Positions 10,926 to 36,361 of a stretch of DNA of 64,000 nucleotides are shown in pieces. Each line of letters starts with the position of its first letter. Position 1 is the stretch's first letter. The position numbers and the translations under genes were made by a program. Under the pieces are notes generated by a model. The model was not told the DNA's origin. It made no database searches and worked only from the letters and a program-made list of their open reading frames with translations. The DNA comes from a virus (lineage: Duplodnaviria > Caudoviricetes), in the IMG/VR virus record IMGVR_UViG_3300011678_000001, positions 192,001-256,000 of that record; one strand, given 5' to 3'.

Positions 10926-11369
10926 TTATGCAAGTACGGTGGTGAAGATGAATTCACTATCTTCCAGCTGCTTTGTTTTGCCTTTGATGTATGGACTATT
11001 TTCACCCGTCCGGCTTCGACAATAGTCAAGATAACCTGGGTAATTATGGTTTTCCTTATTAGAACCCCATCTCAGATTCTCGTAATGGTTATTACGTGAG
11101 TCCTCATCCTCATGCATCGCTTGCTGGTTCGGACTAGGCAATCCATTAAACGCTTCGCACACCAAACGAGCCACCTTCAGCGTTTTCTTCCCACGGCGCG
11201 GATAGATATATCTATCGCCATCCCATTGACCGATGGTCGGGACACCACCATAATGACGAGTCCCTCCATGGGGCATCGGGGACTCGTATGGAATGGTCAT
11301 TATTCGGCCATGCGAAGAAACCATGAGATCTGGGTTAGACGGCGAGCGTCGCCAGACCTCATCCATCAT
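10926..11369 (-). CDS. free-standing NUMOD4-HNH homing endonuclease
   Basis: EVWR...MVSSHGRI (NUMOD4) plus VARLVCEAF...MHEDEDSRNNHYENLRW (HNH); ATGA overlap with the chmC stop. Confidence 0.88.
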   Translation of the reverse strand: MMDEVWRRSPSNPDLMVSSHGRIMTIPYESPMPHGGTRHYGGVPTIGQWDGDRYIYPRRGKKTLKVARLVCEAFNGLPSPNQQAMHEDEDSRNNHYENLRWGSNKENHNYPGYLDYCRSRTGENSPYIKGKTKQLEDSEFIFTTVLA

Positions 11370-12145
11370 AAAGGCACGTCGTCGTCGAAGTTGAAATCGC
11401 TGCCGCCGGACGGAGCTGCTGAAGAAGTCTGGCCACCGTTTCCACGGTTGTTATTCCAGTTACCGCCGCCTTGCTGGCCGCCATTACCGCCGCCGTAGCC
11501 ACCGCCACCGCCGCCCTGACGGTTACCACCGCCATTCCAACCACCACCGCCACCACCCTGACCGCCTTGACGGTTACGATCCATCCAAGCCGGACGCACG
11601 TAGTTGTCAGCGAGGACTTCAGTGACGTACGAACGCACTGTGTCGACCCAGCCCAAGCAGTACAGACGCGAAGCCACAGAGACCGACATCGGGCCGTTGG
11701 CATCACGGAAGTTGTGGTAGGTCTCGTCCAGGAACGGGAACTCGATCAACGGACGGTTCTTACCGGCGCTGATGCAGATGGAGATGACGCCTTCGGCATT
11801 CTTCTCGATCTTGATGGTGCTCATGATCGACGGGTTCGGATCACGCTTCTTCTCGACGAAGCGGTGGCCCTTGTTGTCCATCATGATGCTGGTCGGCTCT
11901 TTGTGGTTAGCCACAGCCTCGACCGCCCGCAGAAACGCGAAGAACGCACGGTTGTTGAACGCCGCTTCGATCTTACCGTTGTTACGGTCGTTCGGCACTT
12001 TGGTCTTGACGACCAAGCGCGGGTTGTTCTCGTAGTAAGCCGGCCGGAGGGTAGGTTCGCCTTCCATGCCGTCCTGGCGCTTGGCTTTCAATGCCAGCGA
12101 GGGTTCGTCCAGAATCGTGTCGGGACGCTGGGTTGTTTCGCTCAT
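11366..12145 (-). CDS. chmC: nucleus-associated nucleic-acid-binding protein ChmC (phiKZ gp67-like)
   Basis: Folded N-terminal domain plus G/N/Q-rich disordered tail and acidic end DFNFDDDVPL; upstream of the gp68-like gene. Confidence 0.65.
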   Translation of the reverse strand: MSETTQRPDTILDEPSLALKAKRQDGMEGEPTLRPAYYENNPRLVVKTKVPNDRNNGKIEAAFNNRAFFAFLRAVEAVANHKEPTSIMMDNKGHRFVEKKRDPNPSIMSTIKIEKNAEGVISICISAGKNRPLIEFPFLDETYHNFRDANGPMSVSVASRLYCLGWVDTVRSYVTEVLADNYVRPAWMDRNRQGGQGGGGGGWNGGGNRQGGGGGGYGGGNGGQQGGGNWNNNRGNGGQTSSAAPSGGSDFNFDDDVPL

Positions 12146-12221
12146 TTTTGGTCTCTCCAAATACGCGGCTTTTACTCAAATAGATACAGGCCACAGTTTA
12201 TTTTTTACCCACCAAACCGCT

Positions 12222-13091
12222 CTAAGCCTTTGAATAGAGGTTAATCACCAGCTTTTCCAGTTCCGGCTCGTAAGCCTTCTTGACCGAACTGATGATGTAG
12301 TCTTTCGTGGTCAAAGCGTTCCAGCGGTTCTTCTGAGCAATGTCGAGCATCACCCGGCGATACTTGATTGGGAAGGCAGTAAACAAGTTACTGTTATCCC
12401 CAAAGAACTGGATGGTCATACGGTCGAACGGGATGTTACTCAGTTCTTTACCGTTTGAGAGCTTTGTGTGCCACAAGGCTGGGGGTTTAGCCGCACCCGT
12501 ATGCGACTCCAGCAATGTCAGCGAATTGAACTTATAGCGTTGCAGCAAGTCAATGGCGTAACTGCTCATCATCAGAACGCGCCGGTTGTCAGACGCAAGG
12601 TCAATGTCTGTCTCCAGAATCTTGACCGTGGGTGTACGCTCCAGCACGCTCAGTAGCTCGACGATGGTGTTCTCTTCCCGTAGGGCTGCCAGCTTCTGTT
12701 TCTCGGTGCTAGCGGCCTTGAGGATGGCGTAAGGGAACTTCTTTGGCACGCCCCGATAGTTGCAAAGGTATATCTGGGTATTTACCCGACCCGCACTGAA
12801 CCGGTGGACCGCACCTTCAATGATCGTCATCTCATTAATGAGGGCGTAGGCCAAGTCCTCTGGGAAGACATTGTTCATCGCCTCGGCATCAATAGCGCCG
12901 ACCAGGTTACGGATCAGGGTTCTCAGGTTGACGTATAGGACGTCGACTTGGTTGATGATCGGGTTGTTGTTGGGGTTGTCCTCAAGGATGCCGAACGCAC
13001 CCTCAAGGGCCAGACTGCTGCCTATTGAGACGGGTATCTGACCCACCTCCCGGCTGGAGATGGCATCCATAGCCCGCGCGTCTATCGCCAT
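12222..13091 (-). CDS. conserved core protein (phiKZ gp66 position)
   Basis: 289-aa ORF with GGAG RBS; synteny. Confidence 0.65.
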   Translation of the reverse strand: MAIDARAMDAISSREVGQIPVSIGSSLALEGAFGILEDNPNNNPIINQVDVLYVNLRTLIRNLVGAIDAEAMNNVFPEDLAYALINEMTIIEGAVHRFSAGRVNTQIYLCNYRGVPKKFPYAILKAASTEKQKLAALREENTIVELLSVLERTPTVKILETDIDLASDNRRVLMMSSYAIDLLQRYKFNSLTLLESHTGAAKPPALWHTKLSNGKELSNIPFDRMTIQFFGDNSNLFTAFPIKYRRVMLDIAQKNRWNALTTKDYIISSVKKAYEPELEKLVINLYSKA

Positions 13092-13100
13092 GCTGTCTCC

Positions 13101-14291
13101 TTAATTCTCTTTGTACTTCTCCAGCACATTCATGACCATCTGCGCCTCGTGGCTCTGATCATCCGCGAAATGCCGCTTGAGCCGATCAGAAACCAAGTGC
13201 CCGATGTTGGTCGGGGTGATGCTGATGGGTTTGACCTTAGGCATCTCCACGTGCGCCAGATCGACTTTCTCCTGAAGCTTGAGGTCATCCATCTGGGTGG
13301 TGATGCGAAACTGCGGGAACCGCTTACGCAAGTCCTTCAGTCCGTGTTGAACCGCTGTCCCCCGTTTGATCATCAAGCGGAAGCATGAATCGTTCGGTTC
13401 GTTCTCATAGGTCTCGAGGATTTCAAACACCTGGTCAGTGTCCATCTCCCGGCAGTCAAGCGTCTTGTAGAGCCGCGCACCGGGGTTTTCCACGAACCAA
13501 TGGTAGTTGCCTGCTTTGGAGATGCACGCCCTGTAGTGGCCCTTAGCGGCCTCCTCACCGTGACTCAGGCGGTCGAAGGAACCCTGCGCCAGAATCTTAC
13601 CGCCGCGCTCTGTACGGATGTGTACATGACCAATGCCGATGTAGTGGCGGACGATCGACATGTAGAATTCACTGTCGTGGTTCTTGGCCGACTCGATGGG
13701 CAACTGGTAATCAAAGGAGCCGTGCATGCAGCCGATGTCAACCTTGTCCATGCCATGGATGGTCAGCAGCTCCATCACCTGTTGTTGGGTGACGCTGGCA
13801 TCCGCGTTCCATTCATCCGGCACGTACAACACACTGAGCCCGCCCAACTCCTCAATCACCTCAATACTCAAGGTATCGACGTACTTCAGGTTGGCTGGGG
13901 TGCCCAGTGTGTTATTGACGTTGACAAACTGCTTGGACTGGCGCCAGTCATGACTGGGAGTCCCTTCCAACACGCGAACAATGATGTTGCGCTTGGCGCA
14001 GATTCTCAACACCTCGGCGATCCATTCTTGGATCGCATCCACTTCATCTTGCGGCAGGCTCATCAACCGATCAAAGACGTCGCCTGCAAAGAAGAGCACG
14101 TCAAGCTTACCGGTCTCCTCTGTGTCCGGGAACGCCTTTCTCAGGTTACCGATGATGTGGTAGGTGTTGGTCCGAGGGTGGGCCAGGTGAATGTCCGAAA
14201 TAAAAGCAACGAACAGGTCACGCGGCTTAAAGGGGTTCGAAGTCGTCTTCGTCGAAGTCATCAATGGGTTTCCGAGCAGAGGTAGATGCAC
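13101..14291 (-). CDS. sbcD: SbcD/Mre11-like metallophosphoesterase nuclease (start possibly 14261)
   Basis: Motifs ISDIH, AGDVFD, LEGTPSHD, MHG and GHVH. Confidence 0.88.
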   Translation of the reverse strand: MHLPLLGNPLMTSTKTTSNPFKPRDLFVAFISDIHLAHPRTNTYHIIGNLRKAFPDTEETGKLDVLFFAGDVFDRLMSLPQDEVDAIQEWIAEVLRICAKRNIIVRVLEGTPSHDWRQSKQFVNVNNTLGTPANLKYVDTLSIEVIEELGGLSVLYVPDEWNADASVTQQQVMELLTIHGMDKVDIGCMHGSFDYQLPIESAKNHDSEFYMSIVRHYIGIGHVHIRTERGGKILAQGSFDRLSHGEEAAKGHYRACISKAGNYHWFVENPGARLYKTLDCREMDTDQVFEILETYENEPNDSCFRLMIKRGTAVQHGLKDLRKRFPQFRITTQMDDLKLQEKVDLAHVEMPKVKPISITPTNIGHLVSDRLKRHFADDQSHEAQMVMNVLEKYKEN

Positions 14292-14823
14292 CCCCTGCTA
14301 CAGGTGTGCCACCGAGTTCTTTTTCAACCAGCGGCGCATCGGCACCGAACATCAGTTCGAGTGGGATATTGTACCGCTTGTAAATCATGGCCCACATTTT
14401 AGCGTAGACCGTGGAAATGGCATCCGCAGGCGTGTGGTTCAACGCCACCAAGCGCTGGACGTAGTTGTCGATCACAGCGCCGGGGTGGGCCGTGGTGATC
14501 TCGGATTCAAACTGCGCAGCCAACTCAGACACGTCCGTCTCAGGCGAGGCCTGGAGTGTGCGGATGGCCATGGGCGTTGGGGCAATCAGCGGCGGGACCA
14601 CAAAGAGCACTTTGCTGGGATCGTTGTTGTCTACCACATCAATCATGCGGTTGGCATGTCCGGCCACAGCCAGGAAGATGTCCACCGGCTTGTGAGGGGC
14701 GCCTTCCGGTGACGGAATCAGGTGAGGCAGGAGTCGACGGGTGAAGTCCACTTCGCGCAATTTGGCGTTGGATTCACTACTCATCGCCTCCAGATTGGCG
14801 AAGTCTTGATCAGTCAATTGCAT
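14227..14823 (-). CDS. conserved hypothetical protein
   Basis: 198-aa ORF with GGAG RBS and acidic tail. Confidence 0.7.
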   Translation of the reverse strand: MQLTDQDFANLEAMSSESNAKLREVDFTRRLLPHLIPSPEGAPHKPVDIFLAVAGHANRMIDVVDNNDPSKVLFVVPPLIAPTPMAIRTLQASPETDVSELAAQFESEITTAHPGAVIDNYVQRLVALNHTPADAISTVYAKMWAMIYKRYNIPLELMFGADAPLVEKELGGTPVAGGASTSARKPIDDFDEDDFEPL

Positions 14824-14876
14824 GGCGATTCTCCATAAAGAGGGCGGTTGGACCGCCCTCTATGCCGAGTGGCTGC

Positions 14877-15650
14877 TTATTCAGCAGCAGGTTCTACGCC
14901 CGACTCGTCATTCGCGCCAGTGGCAGCGGTGACTTCCATGGCCTTCTTGGAGGTTTCCTGACGGAACTCTTCCAGGGCGACGCTGTCGATCACGTAGTAA
15001 GGACGATCGTTGACGCCGCCGTAGGAGACGACCAGGTCGCCCATGACGTGTTGGATCTTCGCATCACGCATGCCTTCGGAGAGCGCTTCACCGGAGACCC
15101 ACTGCTGGGTTGCCTTGTCCTGCTCTTCGACGATTACGCCGTTGTCGGTGACCGTGACACGAACGGAACCCGGTACGTAGCCTTCGACCACTACCAGCTC
15201 AGGCGCACGCTGCTTGGACGTCTTGGCCTTGTGGGCAATGGCGTTGGCACCGGCGATGAACATGCGCTGGGCAATGGAGTCGACCATGACCGGATCGTTG
15301 AACAGACGCTGCATGTGATCGGCAGTCAGCTCGACGAGGGTACGGTTGACGGCCATCAGGGCGTCGTTGGTGGCCACGAGGGTTTCTTCCAGCTGAGTCA
15401 CGCGCGCCTGCAGGGCTTCGATGCGCTCTTCTTGAGAAGCTTCACGCTCTTCTTCAGAGACTTCCTGCTCGACCGGGCTGATCTCCAGGATTTCTTCACG
15501 GAAGATCGCCATGTTGCGGGTCACTTCGATCTTGTCGCCCACTTGCAGTTCGCTGACCGTGACGGTCTGGCCGTCTTCACGAACGACTTCAGCGTCAGAG
15601 GCCAGGATGACTTCGCCCTGGTTGGTGGTCAGCTTAACGGTGTTGGACAT
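14877..15650 (-). CDS. acidic coiled-coil hypothetical protein with Hint/DUF5666-like N-terminal beta module
   Basis: 257 aa, AGGAG RBS, strongly biased codons. Confidence 0.7.
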   Translation of the reverse strand: MSNTVKLTTNQGEVILASDAEVVREDGQTVTVSELQVGDKIEVTRNMAIFREEILEISPVEQEVSEEEREASQEERIEALQARVTQLEETLVATNDALMAVNRTLVELTADHMQRLFNDPVMVDSIAQRMFIAGANAIAHKAKTSKQRAPELVVVEGYVPGSVRVTVTDNGVIVEEQDKATQQWVSGEALSEGMRDAKIQHVMGDLVVSYGGVNDRPYYVIDSVALEEFRQETSKKAMEVTAATGANDESGVEPAAE

Positions 15651-15659
15651 GATTGCTCC

Positions 15660-16082
15660 TTAGTTGTTGAGGCCGCGTGTAATGAATGGTCGGCCGTCGT
15701 TTTGCAGATCAATGATACTGCGAATCTTTGAGTTGGATGAACTGACGACGTGCTTGAGGTCGATTGACTTGTTCCCGTCTCGTAGGATAGCCGTGATTTG
15801 TAAATCAATACTGGTCTCAGTGGTTGTCGTGGATACGTCGAGCGTAACCTCGTCAAATTGCCGTGCCAGGTAGTCATTAAGGACCCGTCTGACCTCGTCT
15901 TCCAGGGTCATGCGGTTATTGCCATACTGACTGATGATGTTACTCAGGCTGGCAATGCTACCCCGGTAGATGTCTGACTGAGAGCGCTGGGCAATATAGA
16001 AGTTGGCCATGGCTTCGTCAGCTTTGATGGTCAGGTCTGATGCGAACCCGGCGGCGCCGAGGACAGGGATTACACGGGCCAT
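15660..16082 (-). CDS. putative T4 gp25-like baseplate/sheath initiator protein
   Basis: 140 aa; LEDEVRRVLNDYL helix followed by a three-strand pattern; GGAG RBS. Confidence 0.5.
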   Translation of the reverse strand: MARVIPVLGAAGFASDLTIKADEAMANFYIAQRSQSDIYRGSIASLSNIISQYGNNRMTLEDEVRRVLNDYLARQFDEVTLDVSTTTTETSIDLQITAILRDGNKSIDLKHVVSSSNSKIRSIIDLQNDGRPFITRGLNN

Positions 16083-16179
16083 AAACGTCTCCAGGACGAA
16101 AAAAGAAAAGGCTGTAGGGGAAGGTGATGCACATACCCATTAGGGCAGTGCATCACAGTCCTGTCACAGAGACCCGTTA

Positions 16180-16492
16180 TCAGGCCTTACGACGGATGGG
16201 GGTCCTTAAGGCATCCTGCATTGACCACCCATACCGTTTTACCCTATCGAATAGGGTGCTGTAGGGAATGTTATTAAGTCGTGCGATCTGAGCAATAGAC
16301 AGTTTCTCCCCTAAGACAACCACAACTCGTGGTACTGCCTCGTTTAAGGCAATATCCCCTTACCGTGGTTCTCTCTCCGCAGTCACAAACACATTCCCAT
16401 TGCCACTCGCCCTTAGCGTTACGCGTTGGGATTTGCACAGGAACATGTAGCTTACCAAACCGGAGGCCTGATAAGTCTTTTTGAAAGGACAT
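16180..16492 (-). pseudogene. internally deleted, frameshifted homing endonuclease
   Basis: N-terminus DLSGLRFGKL...WECVCDCG...SCGCL, then in a shifted frame GEKLSIAQIARLNNIPYSTLFDRVKRYGWSMQDALRTPIRRKA* (HEG-type HTH); no nuclease core. Confidence 0.75.
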
Positions 16493-16513
16493 ATTGGCCT
16501 CCAGCTGGTTTAC

Positions 16514-17137
16514 TTAAAGTGAATTATTGTCTTCTGAGGACGGATCATCAAGCCCTTCATCGAGGAAGGTGTTGAAGTTCGCCCACATGGAGTCGCGGAT
16601 TGTGGTCTGGTCGTGGAATGCCAGCTCCGTCCGGCCGTCTTCGTCGTAAAGATGGAGGTACTGCACGAAGTGTGCATTGCCTTCGTCGTCGAATTGGGCC
16701 AAGCCGTGCATGACTTGTTGGTAGTCCGGATCGTCGTCACCGAAGCGACCGGGATGGCGGTTAACATAGTTGTCACGCCAGCCGTGCATCATGTCCTTCT
16801 CGAACAGTCGCTTGGCACGCGGGTTCGCCATCAGCCACCGCTGCTGACGTGGACCTGCTTGCTGGAACTGCCCGATACGGGACATTGGCTGGATGTCATC
16901 CTTATCGAACAGGTGTGTTACCTTGCGCTTCAGGGCAGCGATCTTACGCTCAATCCGGTCGAAGTCGAACGAATTGAACCGTTCTATGGCCCGCTGGTAC
17001 AAGTCGGACCCCATCAGTCCGAAGGATCGGGCTGTGTTCTCCATTCGCTCCCTGATAGCCGCACGGTCCTCTGACCGAGGGAGTCCGTTATGCATCACTT
17101 CGAACTCTTGGTCATCAGCGTAAATAGCTATCGCCAT
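16514..17137 (-). CDS. conserved core protein (phiKZ gp59/Imp3 position)
   Basis: 207 aa with AGGAG RBS, directly after the gp55-56.1-like gene. Confidence 0.6.
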   Translation of the reverse strand: MAIAIYADDQEFEVMHNGLPRSEDRAAIRERMENTARSFGLMGSDLYQRAIERFNSFDFDRIERKIAALKRKVTHLFDKDDIQPMSRIGQFQQAGPRQQRWLMANPRAKRLFEKDMMHGWRDNYVNRHPGRFGDDDPDYQQVMHGLAQFDDEGNAHFVQYLHLYDEDGRTELAFHDQTTIRDSMWANFNTFLDEGLDDPSSEDNNSL

Positions 17138-17148
17138 TGTGTACTCCT

Positions 17149-17334
17149 TTATTGCGAAACTTGGTCACCCTCGATAATCCAGTTGGTCGACGTGGCAATA
17201 AACGGCGCCGGCAGGGTCGTGTTGCGCGACACTGTGAACGGCTTGTTGAGGTCCATCACGCCGGTGACCGGATCGAGTCGACTCATGACCTTAGCATTCT
17301 TGTGGTCGAGTGGTAATTCGCCCCAGAGTGCGTC
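17149..17334 (-). CDS. nvRNAP beta'-like N-terminal subunit, exon 2 (gp56.1-like)
   Basis: Translates DALWGELPLDHKNAKVMSRLDP...GDQVSQ*; the first D completes the catalytic NADFDGD. Confidence 0.9.
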   Translation of the reverse strand, partial: DALWGELPLDHKNAKVMSRLDPVTGVMDLNKPFTVSRNTTLPAPFIATSTNWIIEGDQVSQ

Positions 17335-18724
17335 CGTATAATTACACCATTAGCACATTGCCGACTAAAGACTGGACTCTTCAGACGGTAATTTAATCAA
17401 ATCCAAGTCGGCGTAGGCAAACCGAAATGAACCATATTCACTTACACTGCCTAGATCACCATCGCGCTTCAGCCGTACGGTGATGGCTTTCTTACTGAGT
17501 TCATTAACCGCTATGAACTCGCTCGCACTAGGGTAATGTGTGATTTCACCTCTTTTCACTCCGATCACTGCTACAGGCCGCCCAATACCCCATCGAGAGG
17601 CATTTAACAGTGTTTCGTAATCGTAGTGTCTGAACTCCCTGTCTGCGTATGCTACCTGATACCGTCCCCTGAAAAGGGACAACCTAGGAGTTCTGGCGAC
17701 GGCCGACAGATGGCCAGTGAGGACTCCGTGAGCAGTAGCTGCTGCTGTCATCGTTGGGTAGATTGTTATCTCCCCAGTATGGATGTCACGGAGTTTTGTG
17801 GGGCTTTCTGGAATCATCCCTAACCTGTCTCGTTTCGGGATGGTCGTCTTCCTGAGATGAGCCGGCACTGGGTCGTGAGAGCGCTGGTGTTTGAAACTGT
17901 AACCGTTACAGGCGTTACCAGTCACAATCGCCTGCCAAACGTCCTCAGCAGAGCAACCCGCTATATGCCCAGCTGTATCCAAAGATTCAGTGAGGATACT
18001 CTCGGCTTCGTTTGATTTCCAGACAAGTATCATTGGACGCGTTGGCGGCTTGCTCAATGCATGATGGATGTTGTTGAGTTTGACAGTAATCCATTCCAGA
18101 TTTGACTCGTCATTATTAGACTTATCGCTGTCCTTATGGTTGACTGTCAACTGCATGGGGTCTTCTGGTGGTTCTATGAACGCCAGGGCCACCAGGCGAT
18201 GAACTCCGAACGTCACCCATCCTGTTTCAGTAAGGACTGTGGCCGTCGAGTATCCATCGCCGTTTTTGTACTGCTTCCTGAGGTTTCCTGCGGGATCGTA
18301 TATCTCGCCTGTGTTAGACGCGAGAAACCCGCAGGTGTTTGGGATTTCCTTTAACATATCGATCCTCGTACTTCTGTGCTAATGATGTTCGTCGGGGTCG
18401 TTACGCCCGACCGATGTAAATGTCCAGTTTACACCGAACGCTATGGTTTCCCATAACGACTGACTATATCTTCACCTACCTAAATAAGTGCTCCCCGTTT
18501 CGATTTAAAGCTTGCGCTCCCCACTTGGGGCCTACTTCCTTACGGAATAGTCGATGAACCTTACTCGTATCTTGCCATCTCGACAATATGTAGAGTCTTG
18601 GCTGCTGATTGCCCAATCCGCTTGATTTTCAAACATTCACGCTCACCGTTTCCAGTCACGTTGTAGTTCAAGCGGCTCTCAGGGGTTTCCAGCAGTTAAA
18701 GGAGTTTAATGACAGCAAAGGTTT
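17335..18724 (-). mobile_element. group I self-splicing intron (1390 nt) with an HNH ORF
   Basis: 5' exon ends in U and intron ends in G; P1 GACGGU/GCUGUC; P AACUGCUGGAAA, Q AAUCAGCAG, R GUUCAUCGACUA, S AAGAUAUAGUC. Confidence 0.93.
17365..18357 (-). CDS. intron-encoded HNH homing endonuclease
   Basis: VHRLVALAF...VNHKDSDKSNNDESNLEW plus repeated NUMOD1-like C-terminal modules. Confidence 0.9.
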   Translation of the reverse strand: MLKEIPNTCGFLASNTGEIYDPAGNLRKQYKNGDGYSTATVLTETGWVTFGVHRLVALAFIEPPEDPMQLTVNHKDSDKSNNDESNLEWITVKLNNIHHALSKPPTRPMILVWKSNEAESILTESLDTAGHIAGCSAEDVWQAIVTGNACNGYSFKHQRSHDPVPAHLRKTTIPKRDRLGMIPESPTKLRDIHTGEITIYPTMTAAATAHGVLTGHLSAVARTPRLSLFRGRYQVAYADREFRHYDYETLLNASRWGIGRPVAVIGVKRGEITHYPSASEFIAVNELSKKAITVRLKRDGDLGSVSEYGSFRFAYADLDLIKLPSEESSL

Positions 18725-20005
18725 ACCGTCGAAGTCGGCGTTCTTGTCGATGAGGTTCAAGGGAGAGATGGAAATGGTGTTATCCGTCGGGTCGGTCTTG
18801 ACTTCATCGATCTGGTTGTAGCCGATCGAGCCACGGGTCAGGGTCGGGTTACGACCAAACGTCGTGGGAATGGTGCCGCTGGGCGCTTCGGCTAAAAGCT
18901 CCTTGAACAGATCATTCAGATGAGGATGGTACCGCAGGGTGTTCTCGTAAATCAGGGCCTGAATCTCGTTGGGAATGTACCCTTGAGTCAGCAGCTTGTT
19001 TTGCAGGTGCACCTTAAACAACAGGGTGCTCATCGACCATGGAATTTGCATTGCGTCCTGGCGATGGGGTTTCTGGCGCGAGGTGATCACTGCACGGTAA
19101 CCGAAGTGTGGTCGAGTCCCGTAGATCAGCTTACGGGCAATGCCGGGCTTCTTGAAGATTACCTCTGCTTCGAAGGTCCGGTAGTACTCGTTGAAATGCT
19201 GCAGGGCACTGACGACACGGGCTTCCTTTACCGGTTGGGCCAGCTTGGGCTGGTTCTCGGCGGTTTCCCGGTTGTCGATCCCGATCAGGATGTGCGCAGC
19301 GTTAACGGCGGCCACCATCTTCGGGTCAGCGGTGATGCGGTTGTTGGCATTCTCACGGATGAAGCCCAGGCGCGTCGGGAACGGCATGTACTCGGAGAAT
19401 GTCTTGTCGTAGTTCTCTTGCAGAAAGCGCATGATCTTACGACGTCTACGAGCTGAGGCAGAAGGTCCAATCAGACCGGCCTTGAACAGCGCCACCAGGA
19501 TGGCTTCGTAGTTTTCGATGAAGTGGTTGTAACCCCGTGGGATGTCCAACCGCTCAAGTTTGCGCATCTTGTCTGCAGCCAACGTGGTCGGTGCATTATA
19601 ACGCGGGTTGCACAGGTACTCCAGGATGTTGAAGTTGGAGTGCGTCAGGTTCTTGGACAGAATCCGCCACACGGTGATGTTGATAAATGCCTTGATGCCT
19701 TCAGGCACCTTGAGCCACAGCATCGACTCCAGCGGCTTTTCCGTGATGGGCACGACTTGGGACAGACACACCGGGCAACGGATGCCGTAGTTGTCCATGC
19801 CTGTGATGTTATTGCAGTCGCAGGCTGCCGTGTTGTTCAGGGAATCCCCGTCCAAGCTGGCATAAATCAGATTGTTGAGCTTAAGGCGGTCGGCCTCAAG
19901 GTCAATGTTGAAGTCGTTCATCATGATCGCAGGATGCGTCAGATGCCGGAACATGCTATCGTAGTGGACTACCCGCAGGTAAATGCCATTCCGTTCTTTC
20001 ATCAA
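18725..20005 (-). CDS. nvRNAP beta'-like N-terminal subunit, exon 1 (phiKZ gp55-like)
   Basis: Zn ribbon CDC...CPVC, KPGIARK, RAVIT and RNPTL; ends NADFDG at the intron. Confidence 0.92.
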
Positions 20006-20096: not shown

Positions 20097-22019
20097 TTAG
20101 AAGCTCGAGCCGAAGCCGAAGCCGTTACCGATGGAACCACGCAGCGAACGCTGGCCATCACCAACTACACGACGGGACAGCATGCCGTGAGTCAGGTCAC
20201 CACCGACGAAGTCGCGGATGCGAGTGTTGCCACGCGCACGGCGATTGCCGAAGGAGTAATGAGCCGAACGCTGATCGATGTTGATCTTGCAGTCAGCGAT
20301 TGCCAGTGCCAGAGCCTCGATGAACTTCGGGTTGAAGTACGCGAGGTCCACGTAACGGCTGAACTTGACGTTCGAAGCGCCGAGAGCGGTGGTCAGCTGC
20401 TGGAACTGTTCGCTGACACGCACTTCCACGTCCAGATCCTGACGGTCGATCACGCCCTGGTACAGGAGTGCCGATTCGCCCTGATCGTTCGGGTTCTGTG
20501 CCAACCAACGGAGCAGGTCCCAATCACGCAGGTCACGCTCGTTGCCTTTCTCGTCGATCCAGGTACCGGTCAGGTAACGAGCACCGGACATTTCCAGCGG
20601 AGTGTCGACGCCGAGTTCGCGAGCACGACGGGTGAAGTTCCCGTTGGTCAGGCGATCTGCGTAGTCGTACAGGCGGCGGATTGCGTCGCCGTTTGCCGAA
20701 GTGTCGGTAGCTGCGTCAGCGAGCAGGCTGGTGATCCAGCTGTTGTCGCCGCCTTCTTCCAGTTCCACAGCCCAAGCCAGGTTCTCGTCCACGAGGGAGA
20801 AGAAGTACTGACCCCACTTGTGGGTGTCGAGGCTGGCACGTGCGTCGAACACGACCGGCTCGTGATCCTGATCTGGGCCGAGGATGTTCAGCAGACCAGT
20901 GTCACGGGTGTCGATTTCGCCACGAGGTACGTCGCCCGGCAGGAAGGTGTGAGCCCATGCCTGATCCTTGGAGATGACCGAAGCACCACCCAGCGCGAGC
21001 AGCAGCAGTTCCGGCGTGATGCCGTTGGTGCCAGTGTCCATGCGGTTGATGACGAAGGTCGGAGTGAAGTACGGCTCGTTGCGAACGGCAGTACGCGCCC
21101 AACGCTCAGTCTGCTGCGGCGGGGAGTACATCAGGTTGACGTAACCGCCCAAGTTGGCCAGGCCAACGGAGACGTTCTGGTCACCCTTGCGGATCACACC
21201 AGCTACGCTAACAGCGATGTCGCTGCGGCGCGGCAGGCCGTCGGCCGAAACCACGTCACGACCGGACAGGTCAACGTTGATTTCCAGCGTGGACTGCTTG
21301 TTCAGCCACTCGAGGCTGAAGTACAGGTCCGGGTTGAACAGGTCGTTGTAGATCGCAGTCAGTGCGGCCTGTGCGTAGAACACGACAGTACGCGCTTCGG
21401 TGCTTTCCGGCTCGTTGAAGTCGACCTTGCGGTCAACGGTACGCCAGCCAGCGCGAACGATTTCCACGTTGCGGCGGGTCTGCTCGAAGTTCTTCTTGGT
21501 GATCTCGTCAACCAGAGCCAGGTAGCTCTCGGTCACGTAGTCAGAAGCAACGACCGGCAGCTGGAAGCTGCGATGGTTGATGTCGACGTTGCGAACTGGG
21601 GACTCGTCGGTGAGAGTGCCTTCCAGTGCCAGCGCGTGGGTCAGGACCTTAACGGTACCCTGATGCTCGACCGGGTAGGCCAGGATGATGCTGGAGATCG
21701 AGACGTTGTGCTCGGATGCTTCCAGACCGATTACCTGGACCTTGGACAGGTCGATGACGCCGGCGCCGGCGACTTGACGCTCAGGGGAGAACCAGAACTT
21801 GAAGCCTTTAACAGCGGAGACCAGAGCCTCACCGCTGGTACGACGGCTCATCGGCGCGCCCAGCAGGCGGTTGATGTCGAGCAGGCCAGCTACCGGCGTA
21901 GCGTGCTGCTGACGGTCAGCGCGGTCAGCACGAGCTGCAGGGTTGGCGTTCTGAGCCGGATGGTCGTTCTTCGGACCGGTGATCGGATCGTTCTGGGTGT
22001 TTTCGTCTTTAACGGCCAT
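20097..22019 (-). CDS. chmA: chimallin, the phage nuclear shell protein
   Basis: 640 aa, AGGAG RBS, strong codon bias, disordered termini; immediately upstream of the gp55-like nvRNAP subunit as in nucleus-forming phages. Confidence 0.85.
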   Translation of the reverse strand: MAVKDENTQNDPITGPKNDHPAQNANPAARADRADRQQHATPVAGLLDINRLLGAPMSRRTSGEALVSAVKGFKFWFSPERQVAGAGVIDLSKVQVIGLEASEHNVSISSIILAYPVEHQGTVKVLTHALALEGTLTDESPVRNVDINHRSFQLPVVASDYVTESYLALVDEITKKNFEQTRRNVEIVRAGWRTVDRKVDFNEPESTEARTVVFYAQAALTAIYNDLFNPDLYFSLEWLNKQSTLEINVDLSGRDVVSADGLPRRSDIAVSVAGVIRKGDQNVSVGLANLGGYVNLMYSPPQQTERWARTAVRNEPYFTPTFVINRMDTGTNGITPELLLLALGGASVISKDQAWAHTFLPGDVPRGEIDTRDTGLLNILGPDQDHEPVVFDARASLDTHKWGQYFFSLVDENLAWAVELEEGGDNSWITSLLADAATDTSANGDAIRRLYDYADRLTNGNFTRRARELGVDTPLEMSGARYLTGTWIDEKGNERDLRDWDLLRWLAQNPNDQGESALLYQGVIDRQDLDVEVRVSEQFQQLTTALGASNVKFSRYVDLAYFNPKFIEALALAIADCKINIDQRSAHYSFGNRRARGNTRIRDFVGGDLTHGMLSRRVVGDGQRSLRGSIGNGFGFGSSF

Positions 22020-29908: not shown

Positions 29909-29922
29909 CAGAGCCTCCTACG

Positions 29923-30540: not shown

Positions 30541-30550
30541 GTGCTCACTC

Positions 30551-30889: not shown

Positions 30890-30991
30890 GGCTCCCCCTA
30901 CACAATACGGCCTTGCGGTATCTTTTTACCCGGTTACAGGCGTAAAAAATAAAGCCAGGAGACGAGGTGATCGTCTCCTTTATGCCGTCGC

Positions 30992-31198
30992 TTAACTGAA
31001 GCTGGGGAAGCCATCATCGCCGGCCGGATTGATCTTATTCAAAGCGGGACCGTGCTTGTTATAATCGTAGCTCTCCTCTGGAAATTCATGGTGCCAATCG
31101 CCTGTGACGCAGCGATGACACTTATAACCCGGTGAGGTTTGCGGGGTGCTGTGAATCGAGTCGCAATTCGAGCAGCATTCACATTCAAATACATGCAT
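30992..31198 (-). CDS. small Cys-rich (Zn-binding) protein, 68 aa
   Basis: MHVFECECCSNCD...CHRC...WH; AAGGA RBS; terminator at 30958-30987. Confidence 0.7.
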   Translation of the reverse strand: MHVFECECCSNCDSIHSTPQTSPGYKCHRCVTGDWHHEFPEESYDYNKHGPALNKINPAGDDGFPSFS

Positions 31199-31209
31199 TT
31201 GTTTGTTCC

Positions 31210-31947
31210 TTAAAGGTAATTCCAATCCGGTCTGTTTTCAGACTTAAGACGGTAAGCTATTGTTGATTCACCTAGTCCAAGTATTTTAGCCGCAGTAGCT
31301 ATACTCGGGTAGGACACACCTTCAATTACAATTGCCTTTTGGCACGTTTCTAACTGTCTGGCTCTTGCCGTAGGTGTGAAATGAACTTCGCGGCGGGCAT
31401 TTGCCTCATTCATCTTCTGGCGCGTCTCGGGACTGATTCCTCCATTGCGGTGCCATGCTTCTGACATCTTCCGACGAGTTTCTTCGGAGGCAGGGCCTTG
31501 AGCAGCACGTGCCTTTGCCATATTGGCAATCACCTGTTCTCTAGGGCGGGCAAAGTTCATCTGCCTAACACGTTCGACATTTTGAGGCTGTAGAGCAAAC
31601 CTGCGAGACGCCTCTATTAAATGGTGCCGGTATTCTTCAGGCATGCCGCCTGCCCACACGCCTGTAGACCCTGTCCCTATATTAGCAAACAATGGGTCGC
31701 CTGCGTGGAAATCGAGCAGTGATTGCTCGTGACGACGTGCTGAATCTAATGTCGAATATTCTACATACTCGATCTGGATGTTGTGCCAGCCGGAGTAAGA
31801 CCGTTGAAAAATATGGTTATCGTGGACTCCCCTATTTAACTTCGATCTATGGCTGCTAAGTCTGGCACTAAGATTACCTGTACTTCCGACATAGAACATT
31901 CCCGTCACTACGTCAGTTAAGACGTACGCAGCAGGAATGCTACGCAC
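31210..31947 (-). CDS. free-standing GIY-YIG homing endonuclease 1
   Basis: AAYVL..FYVGST..RLSSH..E..N core, NUMOD3 (SEETRRKMSEA) and C-terminal HTH; GGAG RBS, GTG start. Confidence 0.88.
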   Translation of the reverse strand: MRSIPAAYVLTDVVTGMFYVGSTGNLSARLSSHRSKLNRGVHDNHIFQRSYSGWHNIQIEYVEYSTLDSARRHEQSLLDFHAGDPLFANIGTGSTGVWAGGMPEEYRHHLIEASRRFALQPQNVERVRQMNFARPREQVIANMAKARAAQGPASEETRRKMSEAWHRNGGISPETRQKMNEANARREVHFTPTARARQLETCQKAIVIEGVSYPSIATAAKILGLGESTIAYRLKSENRPDWNYL

Positions 31948-32040
31948 CGTTTACTCCAAAAATCGAACACATATTAAGTTACTCCAAGAGGAAGGGATTG
32001 CTGGTCACATGGGTAATATGTGACCAGCGTAAAGTGGAAG

Positions 32041-32685
32041 TTACTCGCTAACCGGGACGGGTTCGGGACTTGTCTCTGCTCTCGAAGGCCACCGGCGCGG
32101 GCGGAATAGCGGTTTCATCTTGAGGTTGGGCAGCCCCAGCATGCTGACCGGCTCGATGACGATCGGTGCCCAGGCTTGATTGAACTGTTCCTCGGGCGTA
32201 TCAGCAACGCTCATCCAAGGAATGACCTTTACCGTGCCTTCATTGTTGAGGATGTGCAGCTCCCCACGATTGTGGTTACGGATGAGGATGGCTTCTTGGA
32301 AATTCGGGACTTCCAAGGCCTCGATGGGCTCGACGGGCATGGCGCGAAGCACACGCAGACGGTTGGACAAGGAAGTCAGTTCGTTGTCCAGGATGTAGCC
32401 CTTACGGAAGACCTTCGCAGGCTTCATGAGGACATTCGTGCGTCCCATTTCCCGAAGGAGGGCAGTTCGACGAACACCCATGCCGCCAGGCAGACGACAC
32501 TCGCCGCCAGTGGTTTCATCATACACCGTGAGGTGGTCGACACCTCCGCGCTTTGCAAAACGGAGCAGCTTGTCACGGAACGCCATCTTGGCGGGCGTAC
32601 CCAAGACAAACCAGCGCGTGTTCTGGTAGTTGGCATTGGTGAGCAGTTGACGGCGGTAGTTTTCAATGTTCTCGGCGTAGCTCAT
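32041..32685 (-). CDS. hypothetical protein, tandem paralog A
   Basis: Shares M(S/A)YAEN, IRN...GELH...GTVKVIPW and PLFR.PR-like motifs with 32722..33345. Confidence 0.7.
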   Translation of the reverse strand: MSYAENIENYRRQLLTNANYQNTRWFVLGTPAKMAFRDKLLRFAKRGGVDHLTVYDETTGGECRLPGGMGVRRTALLREMGRTNVLMKPAKVFRKGYILDNELTSLSNRLRVLRAMPVEPIEALEVPNFQEAILIRNHNRGELHILNNEGTVKVIPWMSVADTPEEQFNQAWAPIVIEPVSMLGLPNLKMKPLFRPRRWPSRAETSPEPVPVSE

Positions 32686-32721
32686 GGTGGAACTCCTTTA
32701 AACAAATCGACTGTTGGCGTG

Positions 32722-33345
32722 TTACGGGGTTGTAACAGGTCTACGGTTCATGCGGGGTTGACGGAAGAGCGGCCTGAATATGAACGAGGGAGTGAAAAAT
32801 CGCCCGAAGGTGTCGCACTGAAGGTTATTCCAGGCTTCGTAGAAGACTGTGTCCGTGAGGCCTTCACGCATCACCCAAGGAATGACCTTCACCGTACCTG
32901 TGCGATCACGAACATGCAGCTCACCCTGCTTGCCATTACGGATAACCACCAGTGACTCGATGTGGTCGACCTGTATGAGCTCAAACGGCACCACCGGCAC
33001 GATCCCTTCAATGTTCATGCGTCGGTGTAGGCCGATCAGATAGGCAGGGTGGTTCACGATCCGCCGTGACACCTTGGGAGCTTTACGGCCAATCGATGTG
33101 GAACCGGTTTTGCGCATCATTTCCTTGCGCTTCTTGCCGGCCCACCCTATCTTCAGGTCCTCTTCAGTGACCTTGTCAATCGCACTCAAAAACACGTTAA
33201 CGCCAGACTGATCAGCATAACGGCGCAGTTTGGCAGTGAGTGCCTCATAGCTGGGTTTGCGGTACCCTCCATACATTAACGTCTGACGCTGCTGGCAACG
33301 AGACAGCTGAAACAGAGTGCGTTTAACATTCTCGGCGTAGGCCAT
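32722..33345 (-). CDS. hypothetical protein, tandem paralog B
   Basis: See paralog A; GAGGAG RBS. Confidence 0.7.
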   Translation of the reverse strand: MAYAENVKRTLFQLSRCQQRQTLMYGGYRKPSYEALTAKLRRYADQSGVNVFLSAIDKVTEEDLKIGWAGKKRKEMMRKTGSTSIGRKAPKVSRRIVNHPAYLIGLHRRMNIEGIVPVVPFELIQVDHIESLVVIRNGKQGELHVRDRTGTVKVIPWVMREGLTDTVFYEAWNNLQCDTFGRFFTPSFIFRPLFRQPRMNRRPVTTP

Positions 33346-33355
33346 GTATCACTCC

Positions 33356-34060
33356 TCAGATCAGCAGGTTAGTCTGCAAGCCATCGTCATCGGACTTGTC
33401 AAAGTCCTGAAGCTCTTTGGCCAGCTTCTGTGCCGCTTCCAGTGTCTTGGTTTCACGGAACTCGACTTGCAGGTCACGCCAGGAGGTGTATTCCTGTTGG
33501 AACTCGAGGTTCTCGTGCTTGCCGTATTCGAGCTTGAGGTTGTTCAGTTGCACGTCGTAGTCGGCGTCTTCAGTGGCGAAGATGATCGACTGATCGGACT
33601 TGGGTTCTACGATCCGCACCACACCCACCCGCGGAGGCAATACTTCGAAGGCAGGGTCGGTGACTTCCAACCACCAGTCCGGCACTGGGAACTCATCGGT
33701 GAACTCGTAGCGGGAAACGTTCTCATCCATGACGACCATCTCGATCGCTTCTGGCCAGAAGGTCAGCAGTTCCTCACTGGATTCGACGTAGGCCATCAAC
33801 TGCGCATGGGTATCGGCCATTTCAGTCAGCCAATACGGGTGCATGAAGGGCCAGGCAATCGGGCGGACATCCTGAGTATAGTCCGGGTCATTGAGGTAAC
33901 GCTCAGCGACTGGCAGCTTGAAAGTGATGAGCAGCAGGCGTGCGCCACCGGGTACATTGACGTAGTGGGTTTGGCCGGTCTTCTGCACAGGCTGCATGAC
34001 GTACATGGGCTTACCATCGGCATCATAGATGGTGTTGGCGGGATCGTTACGACGGTTCAT
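33356..34060 (-). CDS. two-domain protein with an inactive GIY-YIG-like C-terminal domain
   Basis: KLEYGKHENLEFQQEYTSWRDLQVEF..TLEAA aligns with GIY-YIG 1. Confidence 0.65.
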   Translation of the reverse strand: MNRRNDPANTIYDADGKPMYVMQPVQKTGQTHYVNVPGGARLLLITFKLPVAERYLNDPDYTQDVRPIAWPFMHPYWLTEMADTHAQLMAYVESSEELLTFWPEAIEMVVMDENVSRYEFTDEFPVPDWWLEVTDPAFEVLPPRVGVVRIVEPKSDQSIIFATEDADYDVQLNNLKLEYGKHENLEFQQEYTSWRDLQVEFRETKTLEAAQKLAKELQDFDKSDDDGLQTNLLI

Positions 34061-34089
34061 GGTGTGGCTCCTTCTGGGTGAGAATTAGG

Positions 34090-34509
34090 TTAAATATACG
34101 TGTCGAGGTAGTCTGTCAGCTGGTCCACCGTGTGAACAGGCCGATGCAGGCGGTTGTCACGGTCGGTCAGGTGAATAGCGATCTTGTGGGTGTCGGCTGC
34201 TTTGACCAACTTGTTCCACAACACGCTGTCACGGCTTTGTTCGTGAGGCTTGTGGTGTTCGCTGCTGTCATAGACGACGTACGTCTGATCGTCGCGGTCC
34301 ATGAACCCGGCTGAGTAAAAGATGGTGCCGTCATGGTCGTGCTGATACAACTGGACGACTACGTAAGAATCGCCCAAGAGAGAACGGACCTTCTGGAACG
34401 GCACAATCAAATTGTGCAATGCCTGATCGGTGGACTCGGCAATCTTTTTCGCGAGCGCCTCGATTCCTTCGGGGGTTTTCACTGACTCGATTAAAGTGGT
34501 GATTGTCAT
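34090..34509 (-). CDS. hypothetical protein
   Basis: 139 aa with GGAGG RBS. Confidence 0.65.
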   Translation of the reverse strand: MTITTLIESVKTPEGIEALAKKIAESTDQALHNLIVPFQKVRSLLGDSYVVVQLYQHDHDGTIFYSAGFMDRDDQTYVVYDSSEHHKPHEQSRDSVLWNKLVKAADTHKIAIHLTDRDNRLHRPVHTVDQLTDYLDTYI

Positions 34510-34559
34510 CCTTGCCTCCCGGCATAAGGACAGCGGGATTGCTCCCGCTGTCGATCGGC

Positions 34560-35552
34560 TTAGAAGATCAGACCGGTGTCCGATGCTTCATCGTTGTCGC
34601 CTGCAAAGGTCACGGCGCTGGCGCGGGTCTTGCGCTGCATTTCCATTTCCTTCTTCAGACTTTCCAGCTCGGTGCGGATCTCGGAGAACGAGGTGTTCTC
34701 GATACCGAAGAACAGGCTGGTGTTCGATTGCGCCACGGCTGGCATGAAGCCATCGCAGCTGTACGGCACGAAGATGCTCGGCTGAAGGTCGTCTTGATCG
34801 CGCTTGAGGTAGGCAGCCGAGATCGGGTCCTTCATGTTGGACTCAAAGCCCTTGATGGTGTCGTACACGTGGATGCGCGACAGTTGGGCCGGGACGTCCG
34901 TGGACTTGTTGAAGAACACGAAGCTCTTGATGTCTGCAGTATCGAGACCGTGGTTACGGCGGCTGCACAGCATCGCCAAGGAGGCGATCATCAGGTGGGC
35001 TTCTTTGTCGATGGCCGAGCGCGGCACATCCGGACGGTTCATGCCGAACTGAATGACGACCGGCTTGTCGACCGCACGACTGATGGCATCGAGGGTCTTC
35101 ATGGTGCCGATGGTGTTTTCAGCGGTCTTGATCGACTCGTACGAGCCGGTCACAACACCAACGGTCACATGGCCGTCTTCGAGCAGCTGCTTCATGATCA
35201 GCGGCCCAGCCACCGAACCCGTACCGCCGGAGGCGGTGAAGATTACGATGTTCAGGTCAGCAGGCTTGAACTTTCGCAGGATGTCCGGCACCGCTTTGGC
35301 AATGGTCTTGTCATTGCTGTTGCGGATCTTGCCCGAGCCATCGAGGTCGGTGAAGAGCCAGGTGTTCTCGACCAGGCGATCATCGAGGTTGGAATCGGAG
35401 GTGTCGATGCAGGCCAGTTGGAAGTTGGCGATGTCGGCACTGTGGCCCTCGTGGAAGCTGAGGTATTCCTTACCGAGGTTGATTCCCCCACCCCCGCACG
35501 CATACACCCTGATAGTACCCACGGGCCGAGTGCTTAGTCCTGTTGTTGTCAT
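34560..35552 (-). CDS. phuZ: phage tubulin PhuZ
   Basis: ACGGGGIN, IDTS, DGSGK, SGGTGS tubulin signature, LDTAD T7 loop and acidic tail ending GLIF. Confidence 0.95.
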   Translation of the reverse strand: MTTTGLSTRPVGTIRVYACGGGGINLGKEYLSFHEGHSADIANFQLACIDTSDSNLDDRLVENTWLFTDLDGSGKIRNSNDKTIAKAVPDILRKFKPADLNIVIFTASGGTGSVAGPLIMKQLLEDGHVTVGVVTGSYESIKTAENTIGTMKTLDAISRAVDKPVVIQFGMNRPDVPRSAIDKEAHLMIASLAMLCSRRNHGLDTADIKSFVFFNKSTDVPAQLSRIHVYDTIKGFESNMKDPISAAYLKRDQDDLQPSIFVPYSCDGFMPAVAQSNTSLFFGIENTSFSEIRTELESLKKEMEMQRKTRASAVTFAGDNDEASDTGLIF

Positions 35553-35584
35553 GTGTATCTCCTCACTATGGTAGTTACTGCTGA

Positions 35585-36283
35585 TTATTTAGATCGATTA
35601 ATTCGACCGTGTAAGGTGGAGGTTGGAATGCCCAGAATCCTAGAAGCGTCAACTAGGCTCGGGTAACACACTCCTTCGTAAACTATTTCTTTCTTTCGAC
35701 TTTCCGCCTGGCGGAGCTTAAGGTCTGGATCGTCAATGTACTTTTGCCGAAGTCCCTCTGAGACAGATCGTTTGGTTTCAACTGATCGCTGCCGCCCAAC
35801 GTGTTTAGCTCTGAACTCCGGATCTTTCCACAATTCCTTAGAGCGCTCTGACTGTACCTGCCTGGCTGCTTCGTCGGAAAACTGGCGACGAGTAGCCTCG
35901 CTCAGCTTCCTCTTGGCCTCTTCAGGGACCGGGACACCTAATCCTGTTCGACGGGCATCGGTAGCTACGTTAAACAGTCTGCCTTGACTATGGCCGGCGT
36001 CCAGCAAATGCTGTTCAATGTCAAGCGCTTCTTCTTTACTTTCGGCTTTAATGAAACCCAGGTCGAAACGAGGATCGTCATCATAAGCCTTTTGTAAATT
36101 TGGGTTCCGGTGAGTCCCGTCTTTCAAACGGTTCTTGTGCTGATTAATGCGGGTATATAGATTATGCGTGCTGCCGACATATGCCCTGCCTGTCTTTTGG
36201 TGAGTCAGGACATAAGCCGCTGGAAATGAATGTTCTTTCCTTGTCGGTTTGCCCCTCAGAGAAGCAAGAACTATGTCGTTCAT
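35585..36283 (-). CDS. free-standing GIY-YIG homing endonuclease 2
   Basis: AAYVL..YVGST..RINQH..E..FN core, NUMOD3-like repeats and C-terminal HTH. Confidence 0.88.
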   Translation of the reverse strand: MNDIVLASLRGKPTRKEHSFPAAYVLTHQKTGRAYVGSTHNLYTRINQHKNRLKDGTHRNPNLQKAYDDDPRFDLGFIKAESKEEALDIEQHLLDAGHSQGRLFNVATDARRTGLGVPVPEEAKRKLSEATRRQFSDEAARQVQSERSKELWKDPEFRAKHVGRQRSVETKRSVSEGLRQKYIDDPDLKLRQAESRKKEIVYEGVCYPSLVDASRILGIPTSTLHGRINRSK

Positions 36284-36286
36284 CGC

Positions 36287-36361
36287 TTACACCCCTGTAT
36301 TGTCCCCGCACGCAAAAATCCTGATAGTGCCTACGGGGCGAGTGGAGAGACCAGTACTCAT
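36287..36361 (-). pseudogene. orphaned 5' fragment of phuZ (24-aa mini-ORF)
   Basis: MSTGLSTRPVGTIRIFACGDNTGV* versus PhuZ MTTTGLSTRPVGTIRVYACGGGG; has its own GAAGGA RBS. Confidence 0.9.

Follow-up and report, generated by a model that had tools for sequence, protein, structure and literature searches.

How can a homing endonuclease gene (HEG) lodge at the extreme end of a conserved phage gene, with no intron around it, and leave that gene intact? The question is raised by several loci in a 64,000-nucleotide (nt) stretch of viral DNA, referred to here as the window, which comprises bases 192001-256000 of the 269,790-bp genome IMGVR_UViG_3300011678_000001 (~55% G+C). The HEGs in question sit within the first or last ~6-20 codons of conserved genes and are bracketed by a diverged direct repeat of the gene terminus. 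One copy of the terminus is joined to the gene body and is in use; the other is an orphan stub that remains on the old promoter or on the old downstream region. A first-pass annotation of the window had described this scar at four HEGs. It is found at phuZ, at a conserved gene of 207 amino acids (aa) and at a Cys-rich gene, but is not established at the gene for a ChmC homolog, where the end in use, and not the supposed stub, matches HEG-less relatives. The explanation that we favor, with a probability of roughly 0.7, is that each HEG was acquired together with the adjoining gene terminus of its donor, probably by one-sided repair of a double-strand break (DSB), and that ordinary homing followed. 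The target genes would stay intact because each HEG brings a substitute gene end.

The source of the window is a chimallivirus-like, nucleus-forming jumbo phage. Hallmark genes of this group are present, including those for a chimallin homolog (20097-22019), PhuZ, the non-virion RNA polymerase (nvRNAP) subunits and the ChmC homolog, and the minus strand holds most genes of the stretch. The nearest isolate is Pseudomonas phage pPa_SNUABM_DT01 (DT01), with which the window is collinear at roughly 65-77% nt identity. Compared with DT01, the window has five insertions with one HEG in each, and all of HEG1 to HEG5 are absent from DT01. The comparison set consisted of about ten relative contigs from IMG/VR (labeled L0xx) whose PhuZ proteins are 72-98% identical. 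These relatives give a natural presence/absence series for every element, and the elements are sporadic among them: present, decayed or absent. HEG domains were assigned with Pfam, whose cut-off was passed by HEG1, HEG4, HEG5 and HEG6, and with PHROG profiles. Introns were identified with Rfam.

The features at the 5′ end of phuZ are the following.

36420-36454, minus strand: promoter-like motif of phuZ, upstream of the stub; it aligns with the DNA that immediately precedes phuZ in DT01 and the HEG-less relatives.
36287-36361, minus strand: phuZ 5′ stub, a 24-codon mini-open reading frame (mini-ORF) made of phuZ nt 1-58, five unrelated codons and a stop codon.
35585-36283, minus strand: HEG5, free-standing, GIY-YIG (Pfam, 2.4e-9), phrog_314.
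35484-35584, minus strand: imported leader with ribosome-binding site (RBS) and substitute phuZ 5′ terminus; the terminus is nt 1-69 of the gene in use.
34560-35552, minus strand: phuZ, tubulin-like, intact, 330 aa.

The phuZ product is 55.8% identical (aa) to the PhuZ of DT01, whose annotation rests on a match to phiKZ PhuZ. Read along the minus strand, the promoter-like motif is followed by the stub mini-ORF, 3 nt, the ATG of HEG5, HEG5 itself, a new RBS and the complete phuZ. The two phuZ starts form a 52-nt direct repeat (36304-36355 versus 35492-35543) that is 79% identical. When the whole window was scanned with the phuZ 5′ end of a relative, the stub was the top match with a score of 41 and the in-use copy scored 31, against a background maximum of 13.

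Relatives show which copy is the older type. By the test set in the first-pass annotation, HEG-less relatives ought to resemble the stub more than the in-use end, and at phuZ they do so in two lineages, that of the window and that of L007. Over 48 nt, the window stub matches the HEG-less contigs L004, L003 and L002 at 43, 41 and 39 positions, and the in-use copy matches them at 38, 38 and 33. In L007, which has the same stub-HEG-phuZ layout as the window, the stub matches the HEG-less sister L006 at 45 of 48 nt and the in-use copy at 29. The stubs of the window and of L007 end at one and the same nucleotide, and each is followed by a stop codon, 3 nt and the HEG ATG. The substitute ends are also sharply bounded. 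Between the window and L002, a HEG-less relative of 98% identity, phuZ has 26 mismatches in nt 1-69 and only 7 in the 924 nt that follow (Fisher p=1.5e-26); between L007 and L006 there are 27 mismatches in nt 1-69 and 36 over the next 1,221 (Fisher p=2.5e-20). Together, the stub ORF, the repeat, the mismatch boundary and the second lineage strongly bear out the phuZ scar. The HEG5 site holds a homolog of 72.5% aa identity in L007 and a decayed remnant in L008, and it is empty in L002-L006, L009, L010 and DT01. In L008 only the C-terminal part of the HEG and the cassette leader remain, a state that, judged from its sequence, is a decay stage of the HEG5 element.

The second case is a 3′ end.

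16514-17137, minus strand: conserved 207-aa gene (phrog_3254), with the substitute terminus as its last ~8 codons (16517-16540).
16183-16492, minus strand: HEG2, remnant of a phrog_374 HNH gene; an N-terminal Cys-rich ORF (16274-16492) survives, the helix-turn-helix region is frameshifted (to ~16183) and the nuclease core is deleted.
16164-16184, minus strand: 3′ stub of the 207-aa gene, reading PDNGSL and a stop codon directly after HEG2; it runs into the ancestral intergenic region.

Homology to DT01 ends nine codons before the stop codon of the 207-aa gene, and only 12 of its last 27 nt are identical. The stub (16184-16164) agrees with DT01 at 15 of 21 nt, and the DNA downstream of it is like that following the gene in HEG-less relatives. 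The HEG2 site is occupied in the window, L013 and L014, and the copy in L013 and L014 is full-length (214 aa; phrog_374 HNH, 9.5e-67 in L013). These three genomes have the substitute end in common, and HEG-less L012, L016 and L017 have the stub-type end, so here too the expectation that HEG-less relatives resemble the stub is borne out. Differences in the 207-aa gene between HEG-bearing and HEG-less genomes are enriched in its last 60 nt (p=0.0008 and 0.003), and those between two HEG-bearing genomes show no such enrichment (p=0.84). When the whole window was scanned, the stub ranked second among ~12,800 windows, and the in-use end was outside the six best matches. The stub is short, so the case is built on its position and on the relatives, and not on repeat statistics alone. 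With the stub, its contiguity with the downstream DNA and the HEG-bearing and HEG-less relatives in agreement, the 3′ scar that the first-pass annotation had placed at this gene (its gene in the gp59 position) is upheld.

Codon usage of the substitute ends is HEG-like. The codon adaptation index (CAI) is 0.31 for nt 1-69 of the in-use phuZ, as against 0.81 for the remainder of the gene; HEG5 has 0.47. The last eight codons of the 207-aa gene have a CAI of 0.37 (1.5th percentile) and a G+C content at third codon positions of 0.25. Atypical codons had been reported for three of the ends in use; the effect is significant at these two genes, marginal at the Cys-rich gene and absent at ChmC. Since the phuZ stub, too, is low in CAI (0.39), the effect at the phuZ start is partly positional.

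In both genes, then, the HEG and the in-use terminus were gained as one sharp-edged block, and the stub is the allele of the HEG-less sisters. The claim that the mobile unit is a HEG plus a replacement terminus, moving without splicing, is supported for phuZ and the 207-aa gene by joint gain and sharp boundaries. The Cys-rich gene is a plausible further case, and ChmC lends the claim no support. From the intact reading frames, the separate RBS and start codon and the conservation at the protein level, we infer that the inserted terminus is expressed as part of the gene.

A different explanation would place the HEGs in unrecognized self-splicing introns or similar elements, the stubs being real first or last exons. 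It has a local precedent, since HEG3 in the same region sits in a bona fide group I intron.

17335-18724, minus strand: group I intron of 1,390 nt with HEG3; it splits the nvRNAP beta′ gene in the motif NADFDG/D (the slash marks the insertion), with exons at 18725-20005 and 17149-17334.
17365-18357, minus strand: HEG3, HNH_3, within the group I intron.

The intron was recognized by Rfam RF00028, which scores 77.8 bits over 18440-18734 (gathering score 50). Compared with the intron-less L013 it is one clean 1,390-nt insertion (18724-17335) in the catalytic motif; exon 1 ends with T and the intron with G. The joined exons encode 488 aa, and the DT01 protein has 487 aa. In addition, the frame would also be intact if stub and body of phuZ were joined at the repeat boundary. 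The same Rfam search, however, covered 10000-38700 at E<=5 and returned only the HEG3 intron; no intron was found around HEG1, HEG2, HEG4 or HEG5, in line with the earlier statement that no splicing is needed. The start and stop codons of the HEGs other than the intron-borne HEG3 are their own and lie outside the reading frame of the host gene. The copies in use each have an RBS and a start or stop codon of their own and are constrained at the protein level, the stubs close with stop codons, and a redundant terminus would be pointless if splicing took place. Hidden introns are therefore scarcely credible as the explanation.

At the Cys-rich gene the features are as follows.

31940-31972, minus strand: Cys-rich 5′ stub mini-ORF with the initial ~5-6 codons of the ancestral gene, overlapping the HEG4 GTG start.
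31210-31947, minus strand: HEG4, free-standing, GIY-YIG and I-TevI_DNA-bd (Pfam), GTG start.
30992-31198, minus strand: Cys-rich gene in use, 68 aa, homolog of DT01 PA10_00133; present in all relatives.

HEG4 is found in the window only, and its site is empty in all relatives examined. The mini-ORF (31972-31940) opens with five residues that are seen at the gene start in L005 and DT01. The stub and the hairpin upstream of it are homologous to the region preceding the Cys-rich gene in the HEG-less L003 and L005, which shows that the stub, though short, is real. The foreign copy is not singled out in the same way, a point taken up below.

Close to HEG4, a conserved 234-aa gene (33356-34060), which is also present in DT01 and in all relatives, has at its C-terminus what looks like a degenerate counterpart of the HEG4 GIY-YIG domain, with which it aligns. 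To judge from this alignment, it may be a domesticated nuclease domain.

The flanking duplication is not confined to the loci described so far. The first-pass annotation had counted five free-standing HEGs between 10926 and 36361. That count does not stand: HEG3 is intron-borne, HEG2 is a remnant and a sixth HEG lies just beyond that range. Its statement that two nuclease families, GIY-YIG and HNH, are involved is confirmed by Pfam and PHROG.

37473-38213, minus strand: HEG6, GIY-YIG (Pfam); the element including its flanking duplication spans 37419-38327.
A short way upstream of the window (genome positions 187607-188257 and 190800-191507): HEG7 and HEG8, both GIY-YIG genes, with hairpin or T-rich sequences alike on both sides.

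HEG6 is present in the window and in L002 and absent in L003, L004 and L009. It is flanked by diverged, collinear repeat blocks (38254-38327 and 37438-37489) that consist of the end of the upstream gene, its stop codon and a terminator hairpin; HEG-less relatives have a single copy of this block. In full, the two copies of the duplicated stretch cover 38238-38327 and 37419-37489. At HEG6 a gene end and a terminator are duplicated, so that the duplication is not limited to coding termini. In an intragenomic test of flanking repeats, 0.8% of 251 other ORFs of the genome had flanks as alike as those of HEG6, and 0.4% had flanks as alike as those of HEG5, both of which are significant. The test is suggestive for the two GIY-YIG genes outside the window, whose hairpin repeats are weaker and could be generic.

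Other HEGs show no such repeat. A second HEG, a phrog_374 HNH gene of the HEG2 family, lies, in L002 (3148-3921) and L008 (~590-1370), between the phuZ promoter and the divergent gene upstream of it, and decayed remnants of this HNH gene lie upstream of phuZ in L003 (~3790-3900) and L010 (~3690-3800). With this unrelated HNH gene upstream and HEG5 at the gene start, the region upstream of phuZ is a double hot spot. In L002 this HNH gene lacks a flanking repeat; the scar is thus common but not universal. No flanking repeat was found either at the GIY-YIG gene of the phiKZ-like Pseudomonas phage SL2 (L025, 2465-3618). That gene is followed by a short ORF which, judged by eye, is like the C-terminal part of thymidylate synthase, an arrangement unlike those above that may be a td-type intron or a split gene.

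The remaining locus is the 3′ end of the ChmC homolog.

11366-12160, minus strand: ChmC homolog (phrog_3284), with tblastn matches to PhiPA3 gp061 and phiKZ gp67.
10926-11369, minus strand: HEG1, HNH_3 (Pfam), free-standing; its ATG overlaps the ChmC stop codon.
10926-10961, minus strand: last 11 codons of HEG1, claimed as a ChmC stub.

HEG1 is present in the window and L012 and absent in L011 and L013-L017. Its tail extends past the C-terminal end of HEG1 homologs in other phages and past the matched part of the PHROG profile. Similarity between the HEG1 tail and the ChmC tail at the protein level is weak and not significant, since 156 of 2319 random ORF ends (6.7%) score as well, and the DNA-level scan of the whole window does not pick up the HEG1 tail as a ChmC end. 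Between L012, which has the HEG, and L013, which does not, differences in ChmC are confined to the last four codons.

Several results, from ChmC and from the other loci, count against the acquisition of HEGs with a donor terminus. The ChmC end in use is identical to DT01 at 38 of 40 nt and the supposed stub is not, so that the native-looking copy is the end in use, the very outcome that the first-pass annotation had named as fatal to its claim. The HEG1 tail has eight synonymous and no non-synonymous differences between the window and L012, which marks it as a selected part of HEG1 and not as a decaying stub. At the Cys-rich gene the in-use start resembles that of the HEG-less L003 and L004, and both types of terminus occur among HEG-less relatives. 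At phuZ the flanks of the block are 97-98% identical between the window and L002, but the promoter and stub only ~76%, and the stub must therefore have traveled with the block and is not necessarily the old end of this lineage. By this comparison, the promoter, stub, HEG and new end were probably imported whole from a donor that was already composite. The in-use phuZ termini of HEG-bearing genomes do not cluster in a test for a cassette clade. A donor with a HEG and phuZ but no stub was not found, and a search of IMG/VR for HEG5 relatives returned only the L007 contig. Finally, at HEG1, HEG2 and HEG4 the repeats on either side are so short and diverged that they do not stand out in the intragenomic test.

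This last result, together with the possibly generic terminator hairpins at HEG7 and HEG8, is what would be expected if the repeats were incidental, that is, if tandem duplications or generic RBS and terminator look-alikes came first and the HEGs landed between the copies later. Yet the two copies occur in no HEG-less relative at any site among the relatives compared, the junction at phuZ falls on the same nucleotide in two diverged lineages, and the boundaries of divergence are sharp. We regard prior, incidental repeats as very improbable.

Acquisition of the HEG with a donor terminus would proceed as follows. The nuclease would cut a HEG-less genome near a gene end. The homologous broken end would recombine inside the gene with a diverged donor carrying the HEG beside a complete gene, and the other broken end, which has no homology to the donor, would be joined illegitimately, so that the terminal codons of the recipient would be left as the stub. 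The junction would mark the approximate site of the cut, which in phuZ would be at about nt 58-69, in the Gly-rich nucleotide-binding loop. Conserved sequences of this kind are the usual targets of such enzymes. The composite would then spread by ordinary two-sided homing. In the 5′ cases the HEG would take over the promoter and RBS of the host gene and be coupled in translation to the stub mini-ORF. Such coupling is implied by the succession of host promoter and RBS, stub mini-ORF, stop codon and HEG start, in which the stop codon lies 3 nt before the HEG5 ATG and the Cys-rich stub overlaps the HEG4 GTG. The gene itself would be restarted with an RBS and start codon that the cassette brings in. 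With its substitute end the resident gene may also be uncleavable, and recombination between the repeat copies would offer the HEG a precise exit. One-sided illegitimate DSB repair has been demonstrated for T4 intron homing and has been proposed as a route to ectopic sites (PMC2988022).

The block might also be an adapted unit of nuclease and immunity terminus, in which synonymous recoding destroys the recognition site and the phuZ, ChmC and other genes of co-infecting relatives are cut. The recoding is indeed dense and mostly synonymous: over 16 shared phuZ codons, 10 nt but only 2 amino acids differ. The recoded tract in phuZ coincides with the duplicated tract, and a Ser codon is AGY in all three HEG-associated phuZ ends and TCN in most HEG-less ones. 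An intron HNH endonuclease of PhiPA3 is reported, in the account given in PMC12908238, to act on co-infecting phiKZ. Against this, the sequence at the phuZ junction itself is nearly unchanged between the in-use and HEG-less alleles, the AGY Ser codon is also found in the HEG-less L004, synonymous sites within the opening ~60 nt of phuZ are hypervariable among HEG-less genomes too, and the CAI of the stub is low as well. HEG2 is dead, and the ChmC case does not fit an immunity unit. On balance the odds are somewhat against such a unit, which we keep as a tentative alternative. The wider proposition, that terminus replacement is a selected HEG strategy in which the element disarms its own target, captures a promoter and RBS and targets conserved genes of co-infecting relatives (phuZ, the ChmC region and others), seems to us doubtful. 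If true, terminus replacement would amount to a nuclease-and-immunity pair competing within a shared cell or phage nucleus.

The nearest precedent is the mobile ORFs (mORFs) of fungal mitochondria that carry a foreign C-terminus, known from atp6 of Allomyces macrogynus and from atp6, atp9, cox2 and nad3 of Glomus sp. (PMC3630166). As here, an intron-less LAGLIDADG or GIY-YIG gene lies near a gene end, and the inserted terminus is the one in use, with the native one surviving downstream as a stub. It is this stub, rather than the inserted copy, that mORF-less relatives resemble more closely, and most of the differences are synonymous (PMC3630166). The fungal cases differ in being organellar and all C-terminal, with replaced tracts of ~50-280 nt; the present ones are from a phage, measure 17-70 nt and include HNH genes. 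In addition, two of the phage cases replace a 5′ end, capturing the promoter and RBS by way of the stub mini-ORF and supplying a new RBS and start codon.

Among phages, the seg and mob genes of T4-like phages (SegF, SegG, MobE) are likewise intronless GIY-YIG or HNH genes of sporadic distribution that spread by DSB repair with co-conversion of flanks, and the resident target allele must resist cleavage (PMC2988022, PMC2790892). They differ in being intergenic and in cutting at a distance, and duplication of a target terminus is nowhere mentioned in PMC2988022. HEGs that split genes, namely mobE in nrdA of Aeh1, mobA with T4 genes 39/60, and a seg gene in gene 43 of Aeromonas phage 25, also invade coding sequence without an intron and with retention of function. 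There the gene is in two pieces whose products reassemble; here it remains in one piece because the terminus is duplicated (PMC2988022). The one-sided DSB repair model from T4, with homology on one side and a microhomology junction on the other, predicts a scar of this kind (PMC2988022). That model comes from experiments with an intron, and natural products with retained stubs are not described there. The PhiPA3 intron HNH endonuclease acting on phiKZ (Birkholz et al. 2024, as cited in PMC12908238) is a chimallivirus HEG on an RNA polymerase gene, and HEG3 is of the same kind. As presented in that source, the PhiPA3 element relies on splicing, unlike the four terminus-associated elements of the window. 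The review of nucleus-forming phages discusses only an intron-borne endonuclease (PMC12908238). Terminus duplication is absent among the keyword matches in a study of HEG-bounded exchange in ICP1-like phages, and no description of a phage HEG with terminus duplication was found in the literature, most subscription journals lying outside the search.

A phage HEG that brings a spare gene end would have a third way of entering coding sequence, the other two being self-splicing introns or inteins and genes in pieces, and the 5′ cases would add the capture of the expression signals of the host gene. The natural pairs of HEG-bearing and HEG-less phuZ alleles, with boundaries resolved to the base pair, are material for cleavage mapping, for marker-exclusion crosses and for questions of nuclear entry. 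Such elements would also explain the hypervariable, mosaic extreme ends of some core chimallivirus genes, which matters for phylogeny, annotation and primer design.

A few observations concern the surroundings of these elements. Past phuZ, the near-identity of the window and L002 (97%) stops ~70 nt beyond the phuZ stop codon (~34489), and the next gene (34090-34509) is only partly homologous, so that another mosaic boundary adjoins phuZ. In the ChmC homolog, positions 11366-11480 encode a linker rich in Gly and Asn and, at the C-terminus, an acidic, aromatic tip like that of bacterial SSB; this tip is nearly invariant among relatives, at the DNA level as well. Next to the conserved 234-aa gene are tandem paralogs at 32041-32685 (214 aa) and 32722-33345 (207 aa), which correspond to a single copy in most relatives and to none in L007, L008 and DT01.

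In the nvRNAP beta′ motif the insertion site is a hot spot for introns. The intron and HEG of the window recur there in L017, the insertions of L011 and L012 hold a different HNH gene, and in L015 two group I introns, neither with a HEG, stand in tandem; L013, L014, L016 and DT01 are intron-less at this site. Within the intron core (window 18633-18719), ~70-86 nt are 84-86% identical to unannotated DNA of Enterococcus phages and to the RNA polymerase beta region of Shewanella phage FishSpeaker. This similarity suggests that related introns are present in very distant phages.

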